Assembly: GCA_039000375.1 (NCBI GenBank)
Contig: JAWBTS010000001.1
Span: 1 to 43,162 of the forward strand
Length of the DNA: 43,162 nucleotides
Reading direction: 5' to 3'
Origin: Candidatus Aenigmatarchaeota archaeon
GTDB taxonomy: Archaea; Aenigmatarchaeota; Aenigmatarchaeia; GW2011-AR5; JAHLMP01
Shown here piece by piece: positions 18,080 through 40,025 of this stretch. The position numbers and the translations under genes were made by a program. Every line of letters begins with the position of its first letter. The first letter of the stretch is position 1. The notes under the pieces are model-generated. The model had not been told where the DNA came from. It worked only from the letters and a program-made list of their open reading frames with translations, and ran no database searches.

Positions 18080-18125
18080 TTGATTTTAAATTAAAAAATA
18101 AAACATAAAAATAGCCCCGCTCGGA

Positions 18126-18136
18126 TTCTCGAAAAA
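18126..18136 (-). other. 11-nt T-loop (59/60) intron of tRNA-Gln
   Basis: The T region is UUCGAA-UUUUUCGAGAA-U. UUCG pairs 4/4 with CGAG, and both strands carry an AA|U bulge. Removal restores UUCGAAU. Confidence 0.7.
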
Positions 18137-18157
18137 TTCGAACCGAGGTCTTCGGCT

Positions 18158-18199
18158 TTCTTCGTTAGCTCATCTTTTTTCGCATCTTTGGATTAATCT
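18158..18199 (-). other. Canonical 37/38 intron of tRNA-Gln (42 nt)
   Basis: CUUU (32-35) pairs with GAAG at the intron 3' end. The 3-nt bulges GG|A and AA|A flank this 4-bp helix (bulge-helix-bulge). Confidence 0.75.
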
Positions 18200-18261
18200 C
18201 CAAAGGCCGATATGCTTGACCGCTACACCACGGGGCTTTATATTTTATTCATTTATTTAAG

Positions 18262-18293: not shown

Positions 18294-20180
18294 ATGAAAA
18301 TACTTTTGATACATGCAGACTTCATAGAATATGAAGCAAAAGAAAAGGCAATTGAGCAAGCAGAAAAATTGGAAAAAAGTTTTGAAAAAGTTGACGAATG
18401 TTTAGTTGTTTTTATTGCTGTAGAAAAATATGATGAAAAAAATGTTGATCAGGTTGTAGAAAATTTGTTTGAAGAGATAGATAAAGTAGCATCTCAGCTT
18501 GGTGTTAAGAGAATAGTTTTATATCCTTATGCTCATCTAAGCAGCGAGTTGGCTTCCTCAGAAATTGCGATAAAAATCTTAAAAAGCGCAGAAGATAAAC
18601 TAAGAGAAAAATATGAAGTTTTTCGGGCTCCTTTCGGATGGTATAAAAGCTTTCAAATAAAGTGTAAAGGGCATCCTCTCTCAGAACTTTCTAGAGAAAT
18701 TAGAGTAGAGGAGGTTTCAGAAGCACTTAAAAAAGAAGAGAAATTAAAATCAGAGTGGTATATAATAGAGCCAAATGGAAATTTACACAAAATAGAATTA
18801 AAAGACGGAGAAATAGTTGGATTTGATTTCAGCTCTTACAAGAGGTTAGAAAAGTTTTCTAGATACGAGATGGCAAAATCAAGAAAAGTTGTCGAAGAAC
18901 CACCACACATAAAGCTTATGAGAAGATTGGAGCTTGTAGATTATGAACCAGCAAGCGATCCAGGAAATTTAAGATATTTACCAAAAGGAAGGTTAATTAA
19001 GTCTTTGATAGAAGATTATGTAACTATAAAAACAAAAGAGTATGGAGCAATGGAAGTAGAAACACCTATAATGTATGATTATGAACATCCGGCATTAAAA
19101 GATTATTTGAATAGATTTCCAGCAAGACAATATAAAATCCAAACACCAAATAAAAAGGTTTTCTTAAGATTTGCCGCATGCTTTGGTCAATTTCTTTTAG
19201 CGAAAGATATGATACTTTCCTATAAGAATTTGCCAATGAAATTATACGAACTTACTAAATATAGTTTTAGAGTAGAACAGAGGGGAGAGCTTGCTGGTTT
19301 AAGAAGATTAAGAACTTTTACAATGCCAGATTGTCACGCTTTTTGCAGAGATATGGAAGAAGCAAAAGAGGAAATTAAAAAGAGATTTGATCTTGCAATT
19401 AATCTCCAAGAAAAATTTGAAATAGGAAAAGAATATCTTGAACTTGCTATAAGAGTTACTAAAGATTTTTTTGAGAATAATAAAGATTTTATCAAAAGCT
19501 TTGTAGAATTTTGGGGAAAACCAGCACTTCTAGAGATTTGGGAAAAACAATTTTTCTATTTCGTCTTTAAATATGAGTTAAATTTTGTAGATGCATTAGA
19601 CAAAGCAGCAGCATTAACAACAGATCAGATTGATGTAGAAAACGCTAAAAGATATGGAATTCAGTTCATAGATTCAGATGGAAGTAAGAAGTATCCTATA
19701 ATATTACACTTATCTCCTAGTGGAGCAGTTGAACGTGTTATTTATGCTATTCTCGAAAAGGCTTATATGGAAAAAAGAGAGAATAAGTTACCGACAATAC
19801 CACTTTGGCTAGCGCCAACTCAAGTAAGAATTTGCTGTGTAAGCAATAATTTCGTAAAAGATGCTGAAATTTTGGCTAATGAACTTGAAAAAAATAAAAT
19901 AAGGGTAGATATAGACGATAGAGATTTAACAATAGCGAAAAAGATAAGAGAGGCAGAAATGGAATGGACGCCTATAATAATAGTTTTTGGTGAGAAAGAA
20001 AGAAAAGAATTCCCAAATAGGTTATCAGTAAGAATAAGAACCAAAGAGGGAGATGTTATAAAAGATATGTCCTTAGAAGAAATTATTAAATATATAAAAG
20101 AGAGGACAGAAGAATTTCCTTTCAAACAATTACCTCTAGATAAATTCTTGTCAAAAAGACCAATATTTTACTCAAAGTGA
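18294..20180 (+). CDS. thrS: Threonyl-tRNA synthetase with archaea-specific N-terminal editing domain
   Basis: MKILLIHADFIEYEAKEKA (archaeal editing-domain start), class II catalytic core (FRVEQRGELAGLRRLRTFTMPDCH), and a C-terminal anticodon-binding domain. Confidence 0.92.
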   Translation: MKILLIHADFIEYEAKEKAIEQAEKLEKSFEKVDECLVVFIAVEKYDEKNVDQVVENLFEEIDKVASQLGVKRIVLYPYAHLSSELASSEIAIKILKSAEDKLREKYEVFRAPFGWYKSFQIKCKGHPLSELSREIRVEEVSEALKKEEKLKSEWYIIEPNGNLHKIELKDGEIVGFDFSSYKRLEKFSRYEMAKSRKVVEEPPHIKLMRRLELVDYEPASDPGNLRYLPKGRLIKSLIEDYVTIKTKEYGAMEVETPIMYDYEHPALKDYLNRFPARQYKIQTPNKKVFLRFAACFGQFLLAKDMILSYKNLPMKLYELTKYSFRVEQRGELAGLRRLRTFTMPDCHAFCRDMEEAKEEIKKRFDLAINLQEKFEIGKEYLELAIRVTKDFFENNKDFIKSFVEFWGKPALLEIWEKQFFYFVFKYELNFVDALDKAAALTTDQIDVENAKRYGIQFIDSDGSKKYPIILHLSPSGAVERVIYAILEKAYMEKRENKLPTIPLWLAPTQVRICCVSNNFVKDAEILANELEKNKIRVDIDDRDLTIAKKIREAEMEWTPIIIVFGEKERKEFPNRLSVRIRTKEGDVIKDMSLEEIIKYIKERTEEFPFKQLPLDKFLSKRPIFYSK

Positions 20181-20197
20181 ATATATTGGAGAAAATT

Positions 20198-20515
20198 ATG
20201 GAAAAGATAGAAATAAGAAAAATAAATAAATCAGACATAGATGAAATTTTGTCTTTAGAAGCCAGATTTCCACCAAAATCAAGAGAGATGATGACAAAAG
20301 AAAAGATAGAGGAAATGTTATCAAAAAATCCAGAAGCATGTTTAATAGCAGAAGAAAACCATAAAATAGTAGGAGCTATTTTCGGAGAACCGAAAAGAGA
20401 AGGATGTAAAATAGTCTCTCTCATAATAGATTTAGATAAAATTGGCGAAGATATTTCTTCAAAACTGATAAAAGAATTGTTGGATAGAACAAAATCAAAA
20501 AACATTATAAAATGA
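20198..20515 (+). CDS. Short GNAT-like acetyltransferase-related protein (degenerate motif A)
   Basis: IEIRKINKSDIDEILSLE...CLIAEENHKIVGAIFG resembles a GNAT N-terminal half. The Q/RxxGxG/A motif is not intact and the protein is only about 105 aa. The alternative GTG at 20177 overlaps the thrS stop. Confidence 0.35.
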   Translation: MEKIEIRKINKSDIDEILSLEARFPPKSREMMTKEKIEEMLSKNPEACLIAEENHKIVGAIFGEPKREGCKIVSLIIDLDKIGEDISSKLIKELLDRTKSKNIIK

Positions 20516-21516: not shown

Positions 21517-22902
21517 TTATCCAATGAAAGGAATAGACCTAAATAGCATACTATAAGTTGTCCACCAATCACTTGCAATAGGAGTTCCTTTAGGGATTAT
21601 CATTTTTAATATTAAAGTATAATTTCTATTTTCTGTTAGATTTAACCTTATACCTCTATTTATGTTATATTCATTTGTTACGTTAAAGGCATTACTCTCA
21701 TTTCCACTAAGCCACATGCTTGCATAGTATGTAGCGTTATCTCCCGTTCCATTAGTTATTGGTATAATTGCGTTCTTGCTGTCAGATCTCCAATCATTCA
21801 TTTTGAACTGCAAAAGTCCAGAAGCATTTGCATTTCCTATTATTGTAAAGTTGAATAACCAATAGTCGCTTCCATTAACTATTGCTATGTTTTTCATTAC
21901 TCCGATATTTGTAATATTAAATAATTGCCTTATAAATAGCGTTGTTTCGCTTCCATTAACATCTGTAGAAACATCGCTCAAATTATCTCCATATATTTTA
22001 GAGTTAAAAGTAAAATTGCCTTCATCTTTTGTAGTATTCAAAGAAATATTTATAATAGAGAGTTTTATTCCTGCTTGTGACGTTATATTTATCTTGCAAA
22101 TATCGCTGCAATTTAAGTTACAAAGGTCTGTGCAAGAAGAGAATGTAGCGGTTGTATTATCACTTTTAGTTATCACAAATTTAATATTGCTAGGAACTAT
22201 TGAAAAGTTTGATGGAACCTCTAAAATTATACTTCTTATATCATCTTTTCCACTAGAATTTATTATATAAACTATTTCTTGCTCTTTAACATTTGTATCT
22301 ACATATCTTGGTAATAGCTTTGCACTTGCATGTAAGTCTTGAATTTGAGTAAAATTAGAAGAGAAATATCGAGAAGTTTGGTTATATATCTGTCCATTCA
22401 AAAAAGAGATTGTAATATTTGTGGCATTTGTTATCAAAGAATCATTTGTTAAAAATAAAGAAACATTTATAGGAGTAATCACACTTCTATTTATTTCATA
22501 AACTATTAGAATTGTTTTATTTTCATTATTAGAAATTGTGAAATTAGAAATCGTGACATTGGTTCTATTAATATCGTTGCTAACATTCCACCTAGAGCTA
22601 CAGCCAAGTTTTTGAGATTCGTTTATAGTTGAGTTATAAATGCAAACAACGAGATTAGTTATGCTTGCATTCAAAGTTTCGTTTGTAGAGTTAAAATTAA
22701 TTATTATATTCGTTATCTTAATAGTTTCATTACTAGTTTCATTTCTACTTAAAGTCAAATTGAGCATTGTAATGTTGCCTCCAGTATTGACATAAGGCGG
22801 AAGATCAACTCTATTACTTGTCACGTTTAAATTAGCACCATAGCTTATTCTATAAAGGACGAGTGAAATTAAAATAAAAATTAATATTGTTTTGATTTTC
22901 AT
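21517..22902 (-). CDS. Secreted protein extremely rich in N-glycosylation sequons (candidate surface/S-layer-like glycoprotein)
   Basis: Signal peptide MKIKTILIFILISLVLYRISYGA. About 42 N-X-S/T sequons in 461 aa by hand count. Beta-rich composition with no recognised family motif. Confidence 0.65.
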   Translation of the reverse strand: MKIKTILIFILISLVLYRISYGANLNVTSNRVDLPPYVNTGGNITMLNLTLSRNETSNETIKITNIIINFNSTNETLNASITNLVVCIYNSTINESQKLGCSSRWNVSNDINRTNVTISNFTISNNENKTILIVYEINRSVITPINVSLFLTNDSLITNATNITISFLNGQIYNQTSRYFSSNFTQIQDLHASAKLLPRYVDTNVKEQEIVYIINSSGKDDIRSIILEVPSNFSIVPSNIKFVITKSDNTTATFSSCTDLCNLNCSDICKINITSQAGIKLSIINISLNTTKDEGNFTFNSKIYGDNLSDVSTDVNGSETTLFIRQLFNITNIGVMKNIAIVNGSDYWLFNFTIIGNANASGLLQFKMNDWRSDSKNAIIPITNGTGDNATYYASMWLSGNESNAFNVTNEYNINRGIRLNLTENRNYTLILKMIIPKGTPIASDWWTTYSMLFRSIPFIG

Positions 22903-23049: not shown

Positions 23050-23149
23050 TGCCCCCGGTGAGATTCTCTCTTTTACATATCGAATAGTTTCGAACTCACG
23101 ACCCCCAGCTTAGGAGGCTGGTGCTCTATCCAAACTGAGCTACGGGGGC
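23050..23149 (-). tRNA. tRNA-Arg (CCU) with a T-loop intron
   Basis: GCCCCCG-UA-GCUC-AGUUUGGAUA-GAGC-A-CCAGC-CUCCUAA-GCUGG-GGGUC-GUGAG...CUCAC-CGGGGGC-A. 100 nt = 75 mature + 25. No encoded CCA. Confidence 0.88.
23064..23088 (-). other. 25-nt T-loop (59/60) intron of tRNA-Arg
   Basis: UUCGAA-ACUAUUCGAUAUGUAAAAGAGAGAA-U. UUCG pairs with AGAG (3 of 4 including G-U), with bulges AA|A and AA|U. Removal restores UUCGAAU. Confidence 0.7.
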
Positions 23150-32178: not shown

Positions 32179-32259
32179 TAATAGTTTTTTGTTTTCACAA
32201 TTATTTATAATTAGTTTTATGTTTTATTAGATTTCTTTAATAAAATGGGCCCGAGGAGA

Positions 32260-32278
32260 TTTTCAAAGCTTAATAAAT
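32260..32278 (-). other. 19-nt T-loop (59/60) intron of the Pro-like tRNA
   Basis: UUCAAA-AUUUAUUAAGCUUUGAAAA-U. UUCA pairs 4/4 with UGAA, with bulges AA|A and AA|U. Removal restores UUCAAAU. Confidence 0.7.
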
Positions 32279-32303
32279 TTTGAACTCCTGTCTCGAGCTC
32301 CCT

Positions 32304-32315
32304 TTAAGCTCGGTT
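32304..32315 (-). other. 12-nt mini-intron in the anticodon loop (33/34) of the Pro-like tRNA
   Basis: AACCGAGCUUAA: GAGC (28-31) pairs with the intron GCUU, with bulges CU|A and AA|A, and UCC pairs with GGG as the outer helix. The product loop is CUAGGGA. Confidence 0.5.
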
Positions 32316-32430
32316 AGGCTCGGATCCTAGACCAAGCTAGACGACGGGCCCAATTTAAATTTATGATGGACTCATATTAAGTTTATAAATATATCTATGG
32401 TTTATTATTTAATAAGTTGGGTGTGATAAA

Positions 32431-34767: not shown

Positions 34768-34805
34768 AAATTCTTATTATTTTGCAGGGGTAGCCAAGTG
34801 GTCAA

Positions 34806-34816
34806 ATCTTGACCAA
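34806..34816 (+). other. 11-nt D-loop intron of tRNA-Leu
   Basis: GGUC-AA|A-UCUU-GACC-AA|A: a 4-bp helix GGUC/GACC with two AA|A bulges. Removal gives the standard Leu D-loop AAGUGGUCAAA. Confidence 0.65.
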
Positions 34817-34832
34817 AGGCGCAGGACTTAAG

Positions 34833-34879
34833 TTTAAAACTTAAGTTATGATCGCTGCTTGCGAGATGATTTTTGAGAT
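34833..34879 (+). other. Canonical 37/38 intron of tRNA-Leu (47 nt)
   Basis: CUUA (32-35) pairs with UGAG at the intron 3' end, with bulges AG|U and AU|A. Confidence 0.75.
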
Positions 34880-35483
34880 ATCCTGTGGCTTAGTGCCTTC
34901 CTGGGTTCGAATCCCAGCCCCTGCATACACTTTAGGTATTAAAGCTTTTCGGTTATACCCATCTTCAGTAGAATTTCTAACTGGAAATTTTAAGGAAGTT
35001 AACTGAATTCTTTACTCTCATCTTTCTCTAGAGCTTAATACTTGAAAATGTTATTTTGCATAAAATATTGGTGAAAAATATAAAATTTATTTATTCCTTT
35101 TATTTCCTTTCACTCTTTTCTCATACTGCCTAACTAATAAGCAAAGTGTTTGCACAAAACTTCAAGCTTTCTTGTCTAGATACTCCTATATTAAGTCTAA
35201 AGAAGTTCTATACATCGTTATCGTCATGGTTCTTAAACTTAAGAAGCGGTTTTGTTCAACTTTGAATTTGAAAATTCTCTTATTTTCTACGGGAAACTAG
35301 AAAGGTATTAGCCTTATGATTTTTGACAAGTAAAGCTGAATGAGTATTTGATTAATTTTCTGAATAACTAATTTACTTTTTCAAAATATCTTTTTATAGA
35401 AATGTGTTACCTGAATATTACCTTTTTTGGCATTTTATTATTCAAATGATAGGAAAACTTGTTAAAAAGTTTTAATCTTTGTT

Positions 35484-36147: not shown

Positions 36148-37083
36148 TTATTTTTGTTTTATAACAAAATTGATATAGTAAGAAGTTTGAAAAGCAAGTA
36201 CTAGTAAAAATGCTAGTACATCGGCTATATAATAAATTAACAATGGAGATAAATAACCTATAGAAGAGATTATAATAATCACAAAAAGGAAAATTAACAC
36301 AGAGAAAGACCAAACTAACGATATTTCAACAAAATTCTCTTTAAGATATTTGAGTGATTTTTTAATAGTAAAAATAAGATTTTGTTCTGTTAACATAATC
36401 TCTTGCAATATGAAAATAAAAATAAATTTTATTAATATTAAAAAAATGGTTGATAACATAAAAGCATTAGATATTAGACTAGAAAGACAATAAGGATCAT
36501 TAATTATGCACAAATCGATTAAGTTTTCAGGTATTTGAATTATAGGTTTTCCGAACATACTTAAAGAATCTAAAATTAAAATTACATAATTTAATTGTAC
36601 GTTGAACTTCTCTAATTTATCTACATTGTTTATATTTTTGTTCATAGAAAATAAATAAACTATGTTTGAAGTCATGGAAAGAAAATTTAATATCACAACT
36701 AAAAATCCTACTAAAACTAATTTTCTAAATTTTTTACTTGCGGTTTTGATTGAGGAAGTTATGCTAACTTTTTCTCTTCGTTGAAAGGATAGAATAGAGT
36801 TAATTAAAGCACCTATTAGCACTAAATTTAGAATAAAAAATATTACAGACATCAAGACTATTAAATAAATTATAGTAAATAATAACTCTGTATCAAAAAC
36901 TTTGATATCAAATATCAAATCAAATAGAAATAAAGATAAAATCTTACCCCATGAAATAGCTAATGGTAGTTGAGCTAAAAGAAATAGAAAATAAAAAGTA
37001 ATGCCTATTTTCGAAATAGCAAATTTTATACTTAACTTTAATGACGACTTAATTTTTTCAATATTTTTCTTCACCAATCTCAC
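36148..37083 (-). CDS. Polytopic membrane protein, orphan
   Basis: 311 aa with at least six hydrophobic helices. No ATG near the 5' end (GTG/TTG start). Overlaps the upstream gene by 26 nt. Confidence 0.45.
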   Translation of the reverse strand: MRLVKKNIEKIKSSLKLSIKFAISKIGITFYFLFLLAQLPLAISWGKILSLFLFDLIFDIKVFDTELLFTIIYLIVLMSVIFFILNLVLIGALINSILSFQRREKVSITSSIKTASKKFRKLVLVGFLVVILNFLSMTSNIVYLFSMNKNINNVDKLEKFNVQLNYVILILDSLSMFGKPIIQIPENLIDLCIINDPYCLSSLISNAFMLSTIFLILIKFIFIFILQEIMLTEQNLIFTIKKSLKYLKENFVEISLVWSFSVLIFLFVIIIISSIGYLSPLLIYYIADVLAFLLVLAFQTSYYINFVIKQK

Positions 37084-38077
37084 CCATAATATTTTCTTTC
37101 ATACACAGTGCAAGCATGGCATGAGTAGTTATAACAAATTTTATTGATTTTATTGATAGAGAAATTGATCGTGGTTCGTAGCAAGGTAGGTTCAAGTTCT
37201 TTAAATCTTCAAATACCTTTTTATTACATTCATCTACGCTTTTCATAATAACACTATAATATAATTTTAGATATGGATTTTTGATGTTCGGCAAATTCTC
37301 ACTAAGATATCTCTCTATGTTTTGAGCACCTATTAAAGGTAAATATTGAGCACAATATTGAATATCTAGCTTAGTAAAGTTTATCTCTTTTATTAAACTA
37401 CTTGATTTAGCTTCTATTTCATCTAGTGCTTTTATTGAACATTTATGATATCTTTCTTTCTTCTCTGAAATATTTATCTGTGACATATTGCTTGTACAGT
37501 TTTCAAAGTACGAAGAAAGCCAATTATCTGACCATACTACTAATAAAGATTGTAATCCAGTAAATTGAGGTATTAGTAGAATTTTGTCAAAATTTTCATC
37601 AATTCTTTCCAAATCTTTCATTGAAGTAGTAATTCCATAAATAATGCTTAGATATGATAAATGTTGCGAATATTTCATTAAATTTGAGTGGGCTATCTGT
37701 GGAGCAGTGATTTTGCAATTCTCTTTATCAATTTCTGATAAAGAACAAACTCGATCTTCAAAAAAGTTATCTTTTCTAATTTCCATATAAACCTTATCTA
37801 AAATAGAAGTTAGAGTAGTGATTGTATTTTCCTTTCTTGGAACTTCTACTACCCCAAAGCTTTTTTCTATTTCTTTCAAGATTTCTTCTTCATGTGATTT
37901 TAAAAAGTTTTCAAACCAAAATTCTATACGAGTTTTCTGTTGAGCAGAAAACTTTTTTATAAGTTCAGATTCAATAAAAGTGGCTTGTATATATAAATAT
38001 AAAAAAGAAGATAAAACTCCAAAAATTATAACACTCACAAAAATAAAAATTATTGTAGCAAATTTCTTAATATTCAT
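37058..38077 (-). CDS. N-terminally anchored, Cys-containing helical protein, orphan
   Basis: 339 aa. A TM anchor (FATIIFIFVSVIIFGVLSSFLYLYI), then a helical, charged ectodomain with about 10 Cys. No recognised motif. Confidence 0.5.
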   Translation of the reverse strand: MNIKKFATIIFIFVSVIIFGVLSSFLYLYIQATFIESELIKKFSAQQKTRIEFWFENFLKSHEEEILKEIEKSFGVVEVPRKENTITTLTSILDKVYMEIRKDNFFEDRVCSLSEIDKENCKITAPQIAHSNLMKYSQHLSYLSIIYGITTSMKDLERIDENFDKILLIPQFTGLQSLLVVWSDNWLSSYFENCTSNMSQINISEKKERYHKCSIKALDEIEAKSSSLIKEINFTKLDIQYCAQYLPLIGAQNIERYLSENLPNIKNPYLKLYYSVIMKSVDECNKKVFEDLKNLNLPCYEPRSISLSIKSIKFVITTHAMLALCMKENIMGEIGEEKY

Positions 38078-39915: not shown

Positions 39916-40025
39916 GCCTCGGTAGCTCAACGGTAGAGCGTCTGACTTGTATCTGATATTTTGATCTTTGAAAGAGATGAAAGAAAGATATCAGAAGGTT
40001 GAGGGTTCGAATCCCTCCCGAGGCT
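39916..40025 (+). tRNA. tRNA-Thr (UGU) with canonical intron
   Basis: GCCUCGG-UA-GCUC-AACGGUA-GAGC-G-UCUGA-CUUGUA[38 nt]A-UCAGA-AGGUU-GAGGG-UUCGAAU-CCCUC-CCGAGGC-U. 110 nt = 72 + 38. Confidence 0.88.
39952..39989 (+). other. Canonical 37/38 intron of tRNA-Thr (38 nt)
   Basis: The intron starts with a copy of the 5' anticodon stem (UCUGAUAU) that can pair with AUAUCAGA at its 3' end. Bulges UA|U and AU|A. Confidence 0.7.

Follow-up and report, generated by a model that had tools for sequence, protein, structure and literature searches.

A probable tRNA-Pro(AGG) gene with two short introns, conserved across a clade of Aenigmatarchaeota-like archaea

Archaeal tRNA genes with multiple or non-canonical introns of the bulge-helix-bulge (BHB) type (hBH, HBh', and BHL forms in the Thermoproteales, Nanoarchaeota, ARMAN, and other DPANN archaea) are the comparison class for the gene described here. 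Their introns lie outside position 37/38, including at position 59/60, and several can occur within one gene (PMC4090602; PMC5829648). Position 59/60 is thus an established non-canonical site of archaeal tRNA introns (PMC4090602), and relaxed bulge-helix-loop motifs are known from lineages with broad-specificity endonucleases, the DPANN archaea included (PMC5829648). The present gene resembles this class in its intron positions and number, in a relaxed 4-bp helix with 3-nt bulges or a loop, and in being missed by standard tRNA finders. It differs in that one intron separates U33 from the wobble nucleotide, with position 34 inside the 3' bulge, in that this intron has only 12 nt and lacks an inner helix, and in its Aenigmatarchaeota-like lineage.

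The second set of relevant systems concerns the anticodon. Reviews describe Archaea as a domain without any ANN anticodon and without a known A34 deaminase (PMC8007984), and a recent survey of GtRNAdb reports only three ANN predictions among 10,517 archaeal tRNAs (bioRxiv 10.64898/2026.05.15.725136). An earlier note on the DNA analyzed here had likewise described archaea as devoid of A34 tRNAs and of the A34 deaminase, which agrees with the literature (PMC8007984; PMC11066159; bioRxiv 10.64898/2026.05.15.725136). The eukaryotic tRNA-Pro(AGG), read as IGG via ADAT2/ADAT3, shares the encoded anticodon and G37 with the gene described here but belongs to another domain in which ADAT is present, whereas archaea have no known A34 deaminase (PMC8007984). 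In E. coli, unmodified tRNA(AGG) reads CCU about as well as CCC, and every proline-box codon was decoded by an orthogonal tRNA(AGG) (PMC11066159); a Salmonella mutant A34 proline tRNA also read CCU and CCC about equally, as summarized in that paper (Chen et al. 2002, cited in PMC11066159). As described there, these two cases show the same anticodon working without inosine, so that an A34 proline tRNA needs no deaminase, but they are laboratory mutants or engineered bacterial tRNAs whereas the present gene is natural, conserved, and archaeal. Natural unmodified A34 tRNAs of reduced genomes, such as Mycoplasma tRNA-Thr(AGU) and yeast mitochondrial tRNA-Arg(ACG), and the rare bacterial non-Arg A34 tRNAs of the Leuconostoc/Oenococcus group likewise serve four-fold boxes in small A+T-rich genomes; these are bacterial or organellar and their genes are intron-free, unlike the gene studied here. 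The three archaeal ANN predictions in GtRNAdb are also A34 tRNAs of four-fold boxes; the present gene, for its part, is conserved with signs of selection across a clade and is absent from standard predictions.

The gene lies in a stretch of 43,162 nt (the window) from an archaeal contig. The host is a DPANN archaeon, Aenigmatarchaeota-like by most source labels, and the isolate names of the metagenome-assembled genomes (MAGs) suggest a hot-spring origin. The window has ~30% G+C and carries core genes for a thermosome, S13-S4-S11-RpoD, EF-2, a family B DNA polymerase, fibrillarin/Nop5, and aTrm56. Four sizeable ORFs (20122–20505, 21517–22902, 36148–36852, and 37058–38077) had no Pfam match at E ≤ 1e-5.

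The whole gene spans 106 nt on the minus strand (32246–32351), with G1 at 32351, the discriminator A73 at 32246, and no encoded CCA. Read on the minus strand, its 5' part is GGGCCCG UC GUCU AGCUUGGUCUA GGAU C CGAGC [CUAACCGAGCUUAAAGGGA] GCUCG AGAC and its 3' part is AGGAG [UUCAAAAUUUAUUAAGCUUUGAAAAU] CUCCU CGGGCCC A. The cloverleaf (7-bp acceptor stem, 4-bp D-stem, 5-bp anticodon stem, and 5-bp T-stem) is fully pairable, with standard pairs in all of eight distinct orthologous sequences, and the tRNA hallmarks U8, the D-loop GG (G18-G19), U33, and a purine at position 37 (G37) are present, as is UUCAAAU once an insert is removed from the T-loop. The earlier observation that the CGAGC/GCUCG anticodon stem encloses 19 nt instead of 7 agrees with the minus-strand reading. 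The T-stem AGGAG/CUCCU encloses 26 nt rather than 7, and the gene accordingly contains two inserts, 12 nt in the anticodon loop and 19 nt in the T-loop, of which the latter was absent from the earlier note.

These inserts divide the gene into three exons on the minus strand. Exon 1 (32316–32351, gene positions 1–36) holds the 5' strand of the acceptor stem, the D-arm, CGAGC, C32, and U33, and varies among the eight orthologs only at C4/U4 (compensated at position 69) and at D-loop positions 20a and 20b. It is followed at tRNA position 33/34 by the 12-nt mini-intron AACCGAGCUUAA (32304–32315). Exon 2 (32279–32303, gene positions 49–73) is invariant in all eight and contains A34 to A38, GCUCG, the variable loop AGAC, the T-stem strand AGGAG, and T-loop positions 54–59 (UUCAAA); the equally invariant anticodon A34-G35-G36 of the spliced tRNA is encoded at 32301–32303. 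The 19-nt T-loop intron AUUUAUUAAGCUUUGAAAA (32260–32278) interrupts position 59/60, and exon 3 (32246–32259) supplies U60, the 3' strand of the T-stem (CUCCU), the 3' strand of the acceptor stem (CGGGCCC), and A73, with no variation save G69/A69, which compensates C4/U4 in two orthologs (L058 and L059).

A TATA-like box, TTTATAAA (32382–32389, minus strand), ends 31 nt upstream of G1 and is a possible archaeal promoter, although such a box is a weak signal in a genome of 30% G+C. The element ATATTTATAAA is kept upstream of the gene in the orthologs, and the ortholog in the L039 genome has another TATA-like box ~27–35 nt upstream. A 21-nt indel upstream of the tRNA (window 32352–32400 compared with L039 2150–2230) displaces the conserved ATATTTATAAA element, the end of which lies ~30 nt from G1 in the window versus ~9 nt in most orthologs; most orthologs also have a second TATA-like box farther upstream than ATATTTATAAA. 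From these sequences, promoter usage may differ between lineages. Directly 3' of A73, the T-rich tract TTTTATT (32239–32245, minus strand) is a possible terminator, again a weak indication in an A+T-rich genome; the tract is kept in L039 and L058 and less so in other orthologs.

Standard tools did not detect the gene. ARAGORN reported no tRNA in the whole window, and Rfam model RF00005 gave no match at the gene, even when a slice of 300 nt was searched at E ≤ 10; both misses are likely due to the two inserts acting together. When the T-loop insert was deleted, ARAGORN called a tRNA-Pro(agg) with a 12-nt intron, aaccgagcttaa, the same intron as in the model proposed from the sequence in the earlier note. 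The window contains five tRNA genes, all of them interrupted and three with two inserts: tRNA-Gln(UUG) (18112–18237, minus strand) with a canonical intron and an 11-nt T-loop insert, tRNA-Arg(CCU) (23050–23149, minus strand) with a 25-nt T-loop insert, tRNA-Pro(AGG) with inserts at 33/34 and 59/60, tRNA-Leu(UAA) (34784–34925, plus strand) with an 11-nt D-loop insert and a canonical intron, and tRNA-Thr(UGU) (39916–40025, plus strand) with a canonical intron only. ARAGORN found none of the five, and Rfam recovered two at the gathering score and three in E-value mode. An assembly artefact is ruled out because a look-up found the identical 106 nt in four other assemblies (three NCBI MAGs and one JGI metagenome); identical copies were found again in scans of a genome collection and of metagenomes, the metagenome scan returning only the known JGI contig.

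The position of the anticodon depends on which 12 nt are removed from the anticodon loop. All contiguous 12-nt deletions were enumerated again, and every product that keeps C32-U33 has A34 (loops CUAGGGA, CUAAGGA, and CUAACNN), as claimed previously. The excision preferred in the earlier note (32304–32315, leaving CUAGGGA and the anticodon AGG) is the sole reading that is invariant across the eight distinct orthologous sequences. The helix on which it was based also exists: the exonic strand GAGC (tRNA positions 28–31; 32318–32321, minus strand) pairs with the intronic GCUU (32306–32309), flanked by the bulges CU|A and AA|A and an outer UCC/GGG helix, and this arrangement is pairable in all eight orthologs, the four GAGC/GCUU pairs being standard in each. 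Within the 3' bulge AA|A, A34 (32303) occupies the third position. The intron begins with one nucleotide of the 5' bulge, continues through a loop of 5 nt and the 4-nt strand GCUU of the helix, and ends with two nucleotides of the 3' bulge. With the inner helix missing, the 5' site falls within a loop of 8 nt, and by its sequence the motif is of the relaxed bulge-helix-bulge or bulge-helix-loop type.

Comparison of the orthologs shows where the insert tolerates change. All eight sequences follow the pattern CU|A-NNNNA-GCUU-AA|A with a constant length of 12 nt, and the loop versions ACCGA, AUUGA, CCUAA, CCUGA, UUUAA, AUUAA, and AUCGA occur among them. The variable sites are only the four loop positions 38–41; the strand GCUU, A37 of the 5' bulge, and both A residues that the intron adds to the 3' bulge are invariant, so that the two 3-nt bulges, A34, and the outer UCC/GGG pairs are the same in every sequence. 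By our own arithmetic, the chance that four variable sites out of 12 all fall within the 5-nt loop is 5/495. The pairs of the splicing-motif helix never vary among the eight sequences and therefore show zero covariation, one strand being exonic, so that support for the model comes from the pattern of conservation and not from covariation.

The T-loop insert has the same type of structure. The loop reads UUCAAA|AUUUAUUAAGCUUUGAAAA|U, and excision at 59/60 restores UUCAAAU. Its motif consists of the helix UUCA/UGAA with bulges AA|A and AA|U and is fully pairable in the eight sequences; the outer helix next to the 3' bulge is the T-stem itself. The insert is 15–31 nt long in the orthologs and its interior varies freely while the helix is kept (L058 has UGGA, which gives a U-G pair).

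The splicing rule was calibrated within the lineage by the sequence of the neighboring tRNA-Leu(UAA). The resemblance of the 12-nt insert to the 11-nt mini-introns of tRNA-Gln and tRNA-Leu, pointed out in the earlier note, is real, as both can be read in the same form; the D-loop insert of tRNA-Leu is GGUC AA|A UCUU GACC AA|A. Applied to tRNA-Leu, the cleavage rule predicts GGUCAA|AGGC, and the insert-free outgroup reads exactly GGTCAAAGGC. The orthologs without those 11 nt are found in two outgroup contigs, L055 (5004–5134) and L052, where the tRNA-Leu instead carries an insert of 12 nt in its T-loop, together with a canonical intron that is shorter. Such differences imply that mini-introns were gained and lost between sister lineages; in the sister lineages L052–L056, S13 is ~70% identical.

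Under this rule the archaeal splicing endonuclease would cut 2 nt past either end of the 4-bp helix, with RtcB as the expected ligase. The 12-nt intron at 33/34 would be defined by GAGC/GCUU and the 19-nt intron at 59/60 by UUCA/UGAA, and ligation would yield a 75-nt tRNA-Pro(AGG) with the loop C32-U33-A34-G35-G36-G37-A38. The cleavage sites given here are those predicted by the rule from the sequence. Pfam scans of 40 of the 46 ORFs in the window did not find a gene for the endonuclease EndA.

The insert might be removed otherwise than by the bulge-helix rule, or be retained, giving another anticodon or an oversized loop. The energetics lend this idea some weight: the splicing conformer forms in competition with the anticodon stem, lies ~4 kcal/mol above the cloverleaf in ViennaRNA energies, and is not the minimum-energy fold; moreover, the inner helix is absent, the 5' site falls in a loop, and the junction is a predicted one. 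The energies also leave the register of the outer UCC/GGG helix ambiguous, with a bulge of either 3 or 4 nt. Other junctions nevertheless fare worse. A canonical 37/38 intron would place the anticodon on insert positions that differ between orthologs, and junctions there or within positions 38–41 give ortholog-variable anticodons (AAC, AAU, ACC, AUU, and others). A stem formed with the second CCGAGC copy (10-nt intron, 9-nt loop) fails because this copy is not conserved, reading CCUAAGC in L049, UUUAAGC in L051, and AUUAAGC in L058. A shifted stem that places GGG at 34–36 was rejected by inspection, as it would entail a mismatched C:A pair, the loss of a D-stem pair, and a variable loop of 3 nt. 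In all 7-nt loops that retain U33, the next base is A34, and the bulge-helix rule also yields the outgroup tRNA-Leu sequence that lacks the insert. Processing by another route is therefore very improbable, and the option of an unrecognized processing route raised in the earlier note found no support.

The two copies of CCGAGC form a direct repeat (window 32313–32323 and 32303–32313, gene positions 29–34 and 39–44) that is confined to the species of the window. It dominates the minimum-energy fold of the window's sequence, and this alternative fold of -43 kcal/mol would trap the pre-tRNA.

In an energy comparison, a G at position 34 would favor a competing register with a 2-nt bulge. This hints, as a speculation from modeled energies, at a constraint of the intron on the wobble base; in this idea, A34 is kept because the wobble base sits in the splice-site bulge, so that the intron constrains the anticodon.

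The orthologs came from a scan of a genome collection with the 5' half of the tRNA and from look-ups of contigs carrying S13 homologues (81–92% identical to that of the window), which together yielded seven further distinct sequences (L039/L046–48, L049, L050, L051, L058, L059, and L060). Every member of the clade shares the neighborhood of a thermosome gene, a VIT1-like gene, the tRNA, a ferredoxin gene, and S13-S4-S11-RpoD, and this synteny holds in at least seven lineages across that range of S13 identity. The exons are identical to those of the window at 72–75 of 75 positions (96–100%) in all orthologs, compared with 8–11 of 12 for the 12-nt insert and identities down to ~50–60% for the 80-nt flanks in the more distant orthologs. 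The sole exon changes are at the two variable D-loop positions and C4:G69 to U4:A69 in L058 and L059, which is compensatory within the acceptor stem, no other stem change being seen; all 25 pairs of the acceptor, D, anticodon, and T stems and the T-loop helix are standard in eight out of eight distinct orthologs. Over 7.9 kb, the L039 genome shares 86.8% identity with the window, and its tRNA exons are identical at 75 of 75 positions, all four differences lying inside the two inserts.

From these sequence comparisons, the tRNA is under purifying selection and is not a decaying copy. The gene might still be regarded as a redundant or decaying tRNA copy or as a tRNA-like element with a non-translational role, since archaeal A34 tRNAs are extremely rare (three out of 10,517 in GtRNAdb) and standard finders miss this one. 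Against this stand the conservation of the exons relative to the diverging flanks and insert interiors, the compensatory acceptor-stem change, the invariant length and splice-motif nucleotides of the 12-nt intron, and the synteny across at least seven lineages, and we consider such an explanation highly unlikely. The decaying gene that the earlier note had listed among three options is excluded by the purifying selection together with the compensatory stem change, leaving unusual decoding by an A34 tRNA in an archaeon as the one option that remains.

The genome-collection scan with the 5' half matched one ortholog (L039), the intron-free tRNA-Pro(CGG) of L010, which is an unrelated archaeon, and numerous Thermoproteota genes for tRNA-Val and tRNA-Pro; in each of the collection's two clade genomes, this 5'-half pattern matched the one gene and no paralog. 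The 5' 28 nt (GGGCCCGUNGUCUAG..UGGU..AGGAU) are common to tRNA-Val and tRNA-Pro genes of many Thermoproteota (L006–L045), and several of these genes carry introns at various positions. In more distant S13 lineages, the syntenic spot held no tRNA from which an ancestral anticodon could be read. The closest S13 homologues are mostly labeled Aenigmatarchaeota, while one MAG with the identical 106 nt is labeled Candidatus Pacearchaeota. The sampled 7.9 kb of L009 (JAWAMY010000002.1, Pacearchaeota label) and L039 (JAHLMP010000001.1, Aenigmatarchaeota label) are ~87% identical, and at least one of the two phylum labels is probably wrong.

Archaeal ProRS and Trm5 recognize determinants of proline identity to which G35, G36, G37, A73, and G1:C72 conform. 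The proline-like product proposed in the earlier note (loop CUAGGGA with A73) was recovered, and all five of these features are present and invariant. The closest intron-free relative found, the tRNA-Pro(CGG) of L010, has the same body. The best explanation of the locus, as judged from its sequence, is probably a functional tRNA-Pro(AGG) that is spliced at both 33/34 and 59/60; its expression, charging, modification state, and codon range are likewise inferred from the sequence.

The tRNA would insert proline at CCU, its cognate and the second most used proline codon in the window, and would probably also read the very rare CCC. Proline codons in the 46 ORFs of the window number 158 CCU, 5 CCC, 185 CCA, and 45 CCG, so that CCC makes up 5 out of 393, and U/(U+C) is 0.97 for proline versus 0.84 for the other four-fold boxes (Fisher p = 7e-7, window). 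The comparison of CCU with CCC use suggested in the earlier note thus shows a depletion of CCC within the window, but CCC was also rare in outgroup loci that lack the gene at the syntenic spot (small samples with too few codons), and for this reason the codon bias is only suggestive.

A34 is genomically encoded and conserved; the known ability of unmodified tRNA(AGG) to decode proline codons well makes an unmodified A34 more likely than inosine. The same gene and splicing could also be combined with conversion of A34 to inosine by an unrecognized archaeal enzyme, such as an acquired TadA-like protein or another protein of the cytidine-deaminase fold, in which case IGG would read CCU, CCC, and CCA as in eukaryotes. 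Encoded A34 tRNAs nearly always co-occur with TadA/ADAT in bacteria and eukaryotes, and the A is strictly conserved in eight out of eight orthologs, both of which speak for inosine. On the other hand, an A34 deaminase is not known from archaea (PMC8007984), the pairing of I with C leaves the near absence of CCC unexplained, and unmodified AGG is already functional in bacteria. The ORFs of the 43-kb window contained neither an H/CAE...PCxxC motif nor similarity to TadA, and Pfam scans of 40 of the 46 ORFs found no deaminase, which counts only weakly against inosine given that 43 kb is a small part of a much larger genome. Deamination is, on balance, unlikely, and an unmodified A34 in tRNA-Pro(AGG) is preferred. 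A more far-reaching proposal, that the clade swapped its G34 proline tRNA for the A34 tRNA as the only reader of CCU and CCC, with inosine supplied by an unrecognized archaeal deaminase, is doubtful at best; if true, it would represent the first I34 wobble system in Archaea.

Multi-intron archaeal tRNAs with relaxed BHB motifs are already known, as are A34 proline tRNAs in eukaryotes (as IGG) and in bacterial mutants. A natural A34 tRNA conserved across an archaeal clade appears to be new, and a prior report of this gene was not found in the literature. A34 tRNAs of this kind escape routine annotation, and detection artefacts may account in part for the 'missing' tRNAs of DPANN MAGs and for their apparent anticodon rules. 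An A34 tRNA-Pro kept by clear purifying selection over a genus-level clade offers a natural system for asking why A34 is avoided: whether unmodified A34 is tolerated in the strong (G/C-rich) proline box, or whether there is an archaeal I34.
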